Shown here one piece after another: positions 1 to 3,000 of a stretch of DNA of 5,786 bases (the stretch's first letter is position 1; the number at the start of each line of letters is the position of its first letter). Made by a program: the position numbers. Location of the stretch: the IMG/VR virus record IMGVR_UViG_2657244940_000016; one strand, given 5' to 3'. The stretch comes from a virus. Lineage: Duplodnaviria; Heunggongvirae; Uroviricota; Caudoviricetes.

Positions 1-3000
1 GATCCTGAAACCTTTCTTGCAAACTGCAACAAACCGGCTGAGTTTTTCACGTCGCTGTACTGCGGCGAGCGCCTGCGTGGTATGGGGTGTAAAGGGAGAA
101 CAGCAATGGCGAGCCGAAGCGCAGCGAAAATCACTGCCGTTATGGCGAATGGAAGATGGTTTTCTGCGTTCATCCGGACTTGGATCTGACCTGCTGCCGC
201 CGCTATCGCTGGTGCTGGATAAACGCGGTATTTACTATGACGCCACGCGCCCCAGCGATCTGGAAGTGCTGCTGAATCATAACCAGCTAACGCTGGCGCA
301 GAAGATGCGAGCTGAAAAATTACGCCAGCGACTGGTTGAAAGAAATAACCCTTAGGAGTTGGCATGGCGAATATGTTTGCCCTGATTCTGGTGATTGCCA
401 CACTGGTGACGGGCATTTTATGGTGCGTGAATTACGGACCAGTGCATCAGCAGCCGGACTGGAAAAACGGATCAATTCTTCCGTCAGTACCGCAATGGCC
501 GACACTTTCGCATGACTGAAGGTGATGGATTCAAAATCAAACTTCGTCAGGGGTTTTGCCTTACCCTCACCCACCCAGCCGGCAGCACCGCCGGACACCT
601 GGGCGTGCACACGGATATTGAACGGCACCTGACGAAGTGCAGGGATCCCGCCCTGACCAAATCGCCCGATAATGGTCTGCGGACGCAGGTAATCAATAAA
701 GTCCTGTGCGTATTCCTGATATTCAGACAGGCTGCCTGCCCACTGCGGATCCGTGGTGGTCCCCGCGCCCACTGCCGATTTCAGGACATGATGCAGACGA
801 CTGTCATCCGGATACTGACGACGGGCCACTTCCAGGGCTTCAGATCGGACGCCTTTAGCCGCAGCCAGCGATTTGGCAAAGCGGGCGAAGCCAATCCCCT
901 TATCCAGTTTCTGCTCCACACGGATCACCGGTGCAGAAGCCACCGCGGCCACATTCCCGTTACCGGCCTGTTTCACCGGCTGCGCCGTGGCGGCCTTACC
1001 GGCTTCCAGTTCACGCAGGCGCTTCAGGTGCGCATCCACCTGACGGATTTCCGCTGCGGTGTTGTCGTAATGCTCTTCCTCCTCCACATCCAGCGTGCGC
1101 CCTTCCTCTGCGGCTTTGGTCATGACCTCCTCAAGGGAGGCTGCCAGCGCTGCACGCTTGTTTTCAAAACTTTTAATCTGTTCGCCAATATTCATTATGG
1201 TCTTTTCCTTATGAAAAACGGTTGTTGACTGTGCCGCAGCGCCGGCAGAAGATGCGATTTTCACCACCGGTTTCCGGTTGCCGGACGCGGCAGAAAACGG
1301 GCGGTCGTAAGATTTAATGGTCCGGATGGTGCATTCCGCATTCGCGGGCACGGTGACGGCAGACACCTCCATCAGTTCCCAGCGCAGAAAATGCAGTCCG
1401 CCTCCGTCCAGAAAGGTGTATTCATGGGGACGGAAGCCCACGGACAGCCCCCTGACCAGCCCGGTCTTAATGGCCGCCCAGACCTCATCCAGCCGGGCAG
1501 CCAGTTGCGACGGCATATCCGGTACGGGCTTCACCAGTGTTGCCGTGATTTCCAGCCCTTCGCTGACCCGGCGCACCGTACACTGCCCCACCGGGCGGGA
1601 ATGGTCATGCTGCCAGAGAAACGGGATCGCACTGCCAAACTCCGCGCCCTCCGGCTCCAGGATGTCACCATCCCGATCCGGAGAAGGCGTTGACGCAATC
1701 CCGGTGATCACCCGTTCATCCTCACTGAAGGATTTCACCGTCAGCAGGGAACAGGCCCGTTTAAGAGTCACATCAGCCTCCTGAAAATAAAAAAACCGCC
1801 GGAGCGGTTCGTGATGGTTACAGTGTGAACAGGGTTATATGAAAAAAACCGCATATTCTTTCTTTTTCGGCTCCGGATTCAGGGACATCAGGGAGACCGC
1901 ATTGAAGAGCGCCATCAGCGGGTCAATTTTCCCCCGCCCGCTGGCCTGTTTGGTAATAAGGATAGCGTTACCTTTAGGCTCCACCCGGGCATTGCCAACG
2001 CACCAGGCCATCAGGGGCTGGTCACCATGCACCAGTACTCCCTCAGCCAGTTTGCGCTCGGTGGTTTTTATGGCCCCGCCAGCTTCCAGCCCTGGCTTAT
2101 CCCCACCACAATTCCGTCGGGGATCCCGGCTTCCGCCAGTGAATCCAGAATCTGCCCCACACCTGACGGGTCAATACCGATATGGTCCAGTAACTCAGCC
2201 TCATGAATACGACGCACATACTCCGCCACTTCCGCCGTGTCATCCCCGACCCGACGGACAATCGTCATGTCTCCACAGGCCACAAAATCCTGAAAACGGG
2301 ATGCCTCACTCTTCCGTCTGACCACCGCGGTTTCATGCGCCCAGGCATGGCCCCAGCCCAGCCATTCGCGGGTTTCCCTGTCACGGCCAATCACGTACAT
2401 TCCCAGCAGATCATCCAGGCCCCCGCCGTCAATCCCCACCGTCACCACATCAGCGCGCTGCAGGATATCGTCCAGGCTGACGCGCCTGCCCTGCTGCTCC
2501 CAGAAATCCGCACCCGCCCAGCGGTCAGAACGCAGGGCAAGACCAATTTCCACATTGGCATGTTTTGACATGAACCCCCGGAATGTCTCTTCACCGGCTT
2601 CCCGGGCTTTACGGTACTCCCGGTACAGAAAAGCCTCATCCACCGAATAACCGAGATTCGGATTGACCATGGCGAGGTTTTCCATCAGCAGGTGAGCCCC
2701 GCTTTCCACCATTTCAGGAGGGTGTTCAAATATCACCGGCAGAAAGTGCGGATCATGAATTTTGCCGTCACGGACATCCCGGGCGTACTGCAGTTTCTGT
2801 CTGAACACCCCGGCTGGCGGCTCATTCGACTGGGTGGTCGTATACACCACAAACCCTTCCGGGCGGGAGGCAAGGCCGCCTATGGCTTCACGTAACATGT
2901 CCTCCGCTTTGTACTGCTTGCCAAATAACCACAGTTCATCAATCAGCGTCCCCACGGACTTGATACCGGATACCGTATTCGGATCGGCAGCCACCACCTT

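Follow-up and report, generated by a model that had tools for sequence, protein, structure and literature searches.

The stretch of DNA analysed here (the window, 5,786 nt) is composed of a piece of the capsule gene kpsC, a short copy of the lepA-lepB boundary and the late region of a prophage. The identities of the blocks and their breakpoints were confirmed by BLAST against a reference set of 5,426 complete E. coli genomes and by base-by-base comparison. The first block, positions 1 to 342 on the plus strand, is an in-frame internal fragment of kpsC, which encodes the group 2 capsule beta-Kdo transferase, and covers amino acids 343-456 of 675. Window 1-345 shows 99.1% nucleotide identity to kpsC of strain A22 and many other strains, and the exact alignment extends through 342; compared with the 675-aa KpsC of A22, the fragment carries two silent differences and is identical in protein sequence over amino acids 343-456. 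Capsule_synth (PF05159) was detected in it by Pfam as a fragment only (E=1.6e-14). Past position 342 the kpsC frame reads RNNP and then stops at 353-355, as the initial annotation had described.

The second block, positions 343-429 on the plus strand, is an exact 87-nt copy of the lepA-lepB boundary. It contains the last two codons of lepA including the stop (343-348), an AGGAG ribosome-binding site in the spacer (354-358) and codons 1-22 of lepB (364-429), so the ribosome-binding site and exactly 22 LepB N-terminal codons noticed earlier are indeed there. The BLAST search showed that window 340-432 matches the lepA/lepB locus in all of the 5,426 complete genomes. Positions 364-429 encode MANMFALILVIATLVTGILWCV, which corresponds to LepB residues 1-22, and native LepB continues as MANMFALILVIATLVTGILWCV|DKFFF; only these codons, comprising the first transmembrane segment, are present, and the catalytic periplasmic domain is absent. 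As lepB is essential, the 87-nt piece cannot be the sole lepB of the cell, whose genome must contain an intact copy at another place.

The third block, positions 431-5786, is the late region of a lambdoid, Stx-phage-like prophage, which aligns as one collinear piece with 98.4% identity to E. coli strain G6/7. Pfam domains found in its right-hand part are TerL, TerS, HNH, DUF3950 and TonB_C. Its left end, positions 431-1771 on the minus strand, comprises codons 1-447 of a 645-codon prohead protease-scaffold-major capsid fusion gene, collinear with G6/7 and with phage JLK-2012, in both of which the fusion protein has 645 aa. Two open reading frames run across the left limit of this block. A minus-strand frame at 320-1771 (483 aa) consists of the 447 phage-derived codons followed by a 36-aa tail and stop (320-430) that are antisense to lepB and kpsC; a plus-strand frame at 364-519 (51 aa) joins LepB residues 1-22 to antisense capsid sequence. 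Pfam detected Peptidase_S78 in the 483-aa frame, with Phage_capsid falling below threshold in the cut frame, and gave no match in the 51-aa frame.

To look up the source of the window, exact products of its frames were used. The 475-aa TerL frame led to a 5786-nt NCBI contig, CDRA01000641.1, and to seven contigs of sister assemblies. The window is the reverse complement of the whole of CDRA01000641.1, a draft contig of the E. coli assembly GCA_000947375.1, so that the contig starts at window position 1, inside kpsC. The two sequences are identical at 5785 of 5786 positions, the sole difference being position 430, which is an A in the supplied window and an N in CDRA01000641.1 (position 5357 of that contig). 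Base-by-base comparison had already set this base apart, as the A fits neither parent (lepB has G and the phage has C), and the exact phage match begins at 431. The lepB/capsid joint is thus a scaffold gap marked by one N, with a 429-nt mini-contig on one side and a 5356-nt phage contig on the other, and since the public record holds an N at this place, the joint was never sequenced. A scaffolding artefact would leave just such a gap character where the two pieces meet. A genuine rearrangement would show continuous sequence at both breakpoints; the sequence is continuous at 342/343 and is interrupted at 430. The initial annotation had placed the passage into the reverse complement of an interrupted HK97-type capsid gene at nt 430; the fusion gene cut after codon 447 was found, with the phage sequence starting at 431, and the joint itself was not confirmed as sequence. 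Exact-product look-ups of the 51-aa and 483-aa frames, both of which cross position 430, came back empty, probably because the products in the record would carry an X at the N-containing codon. The public annotation of CDRA01000641.1 also calls the 483-aa frame across the gap.

The sister assemblies show how the capsid gene continues. Five sister contigs (L005 to L009) share 99.8-100% identity with the window along a stretch of 3.4-4.5 kb that ends at position 431, and run 103-954 nt beyond the breakpoint into the native capsid gene, without a mismatch to the capsid gene of G6/7 over the compared stretch of up to 600 nt. L005 holds the complete 645-aa capsid, with both Peptidase_S78 and Phage_capsid present. 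The comparison with related genomes thus found the capsid gene intact across the breakpoint in five sister contigs, and the region is likewise contiguous in 1245 complete E. coli genomes. It is a multi-copy region, found at 2955 places in 1250 genomes and in three copies in G6/7, the closest relative, and sister contigs also end within the capsid gene.

A comparable non-native join was found in the same batch of assemblies. In the sister contig L006 (CDQY01000231.1), positions 1-912 consist of 910 nt of nlpD-rpoS, stopping about 18 codons into rpoS, and the letters NN, after which the sequence goes on from the middle of terS; this arrangement occurs in none of the 5,426 complete E. coli genomes. 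In L009, a lone N at position 138 lies within otherwise collinear phage sequence; short N placeholders in this batch therefore flag correct joins as well as wrong ones.

Neither the lepB/capsid nor the kpsC/lepA junction was found by BLAST in any of the 5,426 complete E. coli genomes. Exact scans of GTDB representative genomes and of JGI metagenomes gave no match for either of the two junctions, and a scan of IMG/VR for the lepB/capsid junction gave none. Phage and plasmid collections contained the separate blocks only, with no record joining them. When the chimeric capsid tail was searched in a collection of 5.8 billion protein sequences, no protein covered the tail, and the hits were partial capsids with a query coverage of 62% at most. 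A contiguous native locus spanning window 1-520, or a capsid homologue with the C-terminus of the 483-aa frame, would have spoken for a natural arrangement; neither was found in the collections searched. Nothing relevant was found in the literature on a kpsC/lepB/prophage arrangement or on the assembly accessions.

We concluded that the three-way junction is very probably no genomic structure but an artefact, produced when a draft E. coli genome was assembled and scaffolded. A scaffolder would have set the 429-nt mini-contig beside the 5356-nt prophage contig, marking the joint that it could not close with one N, and the display of this N as an A in the supplied sequence would have produced the apparent gene fusion. 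The account of the single-N insertion draws on general knowledge of scaffolders and not on the record. The phage contig would end in the capsid gene as many E. coli with several lambdoid prophages carry more than one copy of it; repeated sequence is the usual cause of contig breaks in short-read assemblies, and the multi-copy capsid region would fit a repeat-induced contig end. The cut in the capsid gene is the end of the phage contig and not a deletion, and the proposal that the locus is the scar of a deletion or rearrangement which removed the left part of the prophage is not supported, given the N placeholder at the joint and the continuation of the capsid gene in the sister assemblies. The alternative offered with it, a chimeric assembly, was the right one.

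In several respects the locus resembles mis-scaffolded or gap-placeholder joins known from short-read drafts: the N lies exactly at the joint, the flanks are unrelated single-copy and prophage sequences, the contig ends in a prophage gene that is multi-copy in many complete genomes, and an analogous join exists in a sister assembly. It differs from them in having a second joint, at 342/343, that carries no N and would call for a further cause, for instance a chimeric read or a gap that was closed wrongly. Deletion-derived cryptic or defective lambdoid prophages are similar in that the late operon seems to stop in the middle of a gene beside chromosomal DNA and in the frameshift of the large terminase gene (see below); unlike in such remnants, however, the truncation here is a contig end, and the capsid gene is contiguous in the sister assemblies and the 1245 complete genomes. 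Because a scaffold gap is combined with a likely chimeric mini-contig, the organism itself has neither the truncated capsid nor the 51-aa LepB-fusion peptide nor the 36-aa capsid tail. It had been suggested that a 51-aa LepB-derived membrane peptide could be expressed; this frame reads across the N, as does the 36-aa capsid tail, and neither is real.

The kpsC/lepA joint at 342/343 has to be explained separately. It is blunt and unique. As it contains no N, some sequence must have supported it during assembly, which counts against an artefact. Two contigs are normally joined by a scaffolder only when several read pairs connect them; there may therefore have been library molecules that bridged the mini-contig and the phage contig, which counts in the same direction. 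The joint sits in the 429-nt piece (342 nt of kpsC and 87 nt of lepA/lepB), both ends of which stop in single-copy genes, in kpsC on the left and 22 codons into lepB on the right. If the genome is clonal and well covered, a true junction would not be expected to lie in a piece with such ends in single-copy sequence. The essentiality of lepB and the fragmentation suggested by the contig number (see below) also argue against a true junction here. Most likely, the 429-nt mini-contig is itself chimeric or a gap-closure artefact. It would then stem from a library molecule that was chimeric or from an error in closing a gap, with a mixed or low-coverage sample as a further conceivable source.

Recombination or template switching through microhomology was considered at both joints and is not supported. 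At 342/343 the motif CAAA is present in both parents; its use would give GAAAGCAAATAACC, and the window has GAAAGAAATAACC, one base short, so that template switching at this motif would have to be accompanied by the loss of one more nucleotide; the joint is blunt. At 429/431 the parents share only AT, and the odd base at 430 proved to be the N.

The mixed or low-coverage sample is a sub-case of the artefact and, although possible, it is less likely than not. Here, many tiny contigs, for example from a minor kps-positive E. coli contaminant, would have been chained onto the phage contig by the scaffolder and gap-filler. The ends of the kpsC and lepB pieces in single-copy genes are in keeping with this. 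So is the contig number 641, which implies at least 641 contigs, against 231-302 as the highest contig numbers seen for the sister assemblies, and suggests that this assembly is more fragmented than its sisters. How far the number 641 bears on this depends on the order in which the contigs were numbered.

A real complex rearrangement is very unlikely. It would require that a broken kpsC was fused to a broken capsid gene by illegitimate end-joining or template switching, with the 87-nt lepA-lepB piece as templated filler, and that the N stands for one uncertain base. In keeping with such an event, the kpsC/lepA joint has no N, neither joint shows a restriction site, and scaffolding implies that some read pairs connected the pieces. 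A short piece of 87 nt from a distant locus between two unrelated breakpoints is a feature shared with illegitimate recombination or alternative end-joining with templated filler. However, one of the two breakpoints is an N and not sequence, and the other is blunt with no usable microhomology; no independent genome supports the structure. Instead of sharing the junction, contigs of the sister assemblies carry the intact continuation of the capsid gene, and the junction is absent from all collections searched. The analogous nlpD-rpoS/NN/terS join in the same batch and the end of the contig just 342 nt into single-copy kpsC also speak against it. If it were true, several fragments would have been end-joined, together with templated filler DNA, into a patchwork locus in a natural isolate of E. 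coli.

The window starts precisely on GATC. There are 26 GATC sites in the 5786 nt, which gives each end a chance of about 0.5% of falling on one; the analysis brought up no explanation for this start, which is probably a coincidence. A chimera from Sau3AI/BamHI library cloning, as the leading GATCC might suggest (the initial annotation had named a cloning junction), is nevertheless excluded, as the native kpsC context is CGATCC and not the GGATCC of a BamHI site, no GATC is found at the internal joints, and GATCC is just the draft end of what is a whole-genome shotgun contig.

The junction matters mainly as a matter of quality control, in that an N shown as A made a scaffold gap look like a gene fusion with two spurious open reading frames, and it has no biological consequence unless reads prove otherwise. 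In scans of draft assemblies, N positions should be masked or flagged, and short pieces of single-copy genes at contig ends beside prophage sequence should be treated with suspicion. Ambiguous bases were apparently turned into A before the first reading of the sequence, and false open reading frames and false junctions are possible wherever this happens.

Outside the junction, a 1-nt deletion near 2081, within a G-rich stretch, splits the large terminase gene (1835-3495, minus strand) into frames of 475 aa and 65 aa, as defined relative to phage JLK-2012, whose TerL is intact (553 aa). Each of the seven sister contigs shows the split, and the annotation of the complete genome G6/7 likewise gives its terL as frameshifted; for these reasons the frameshift is probably real, and the prophage is probably defective in packaging.

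Some further features of the prophage were observed. In L005, the intact capsid gene is followed downstream by about 170 nt that still match the G6/7 prophage, and from there to the contig end (5291-5474) lies a fragment of an IS66-family transposase, which may reflect the insertion of an IS into this lineage's prophage or just a repeat at the contig end. In the window, two accessory genes of the prophage encode a DUF3950 (YlcI/YnfO) protein (4754-4951, plus strand) and a 113-aa protein with a TonB_C domain (5086-5427, minus strand). Both genes sit between the lysis and packaging modules and are conserved in many Stx-type phages.
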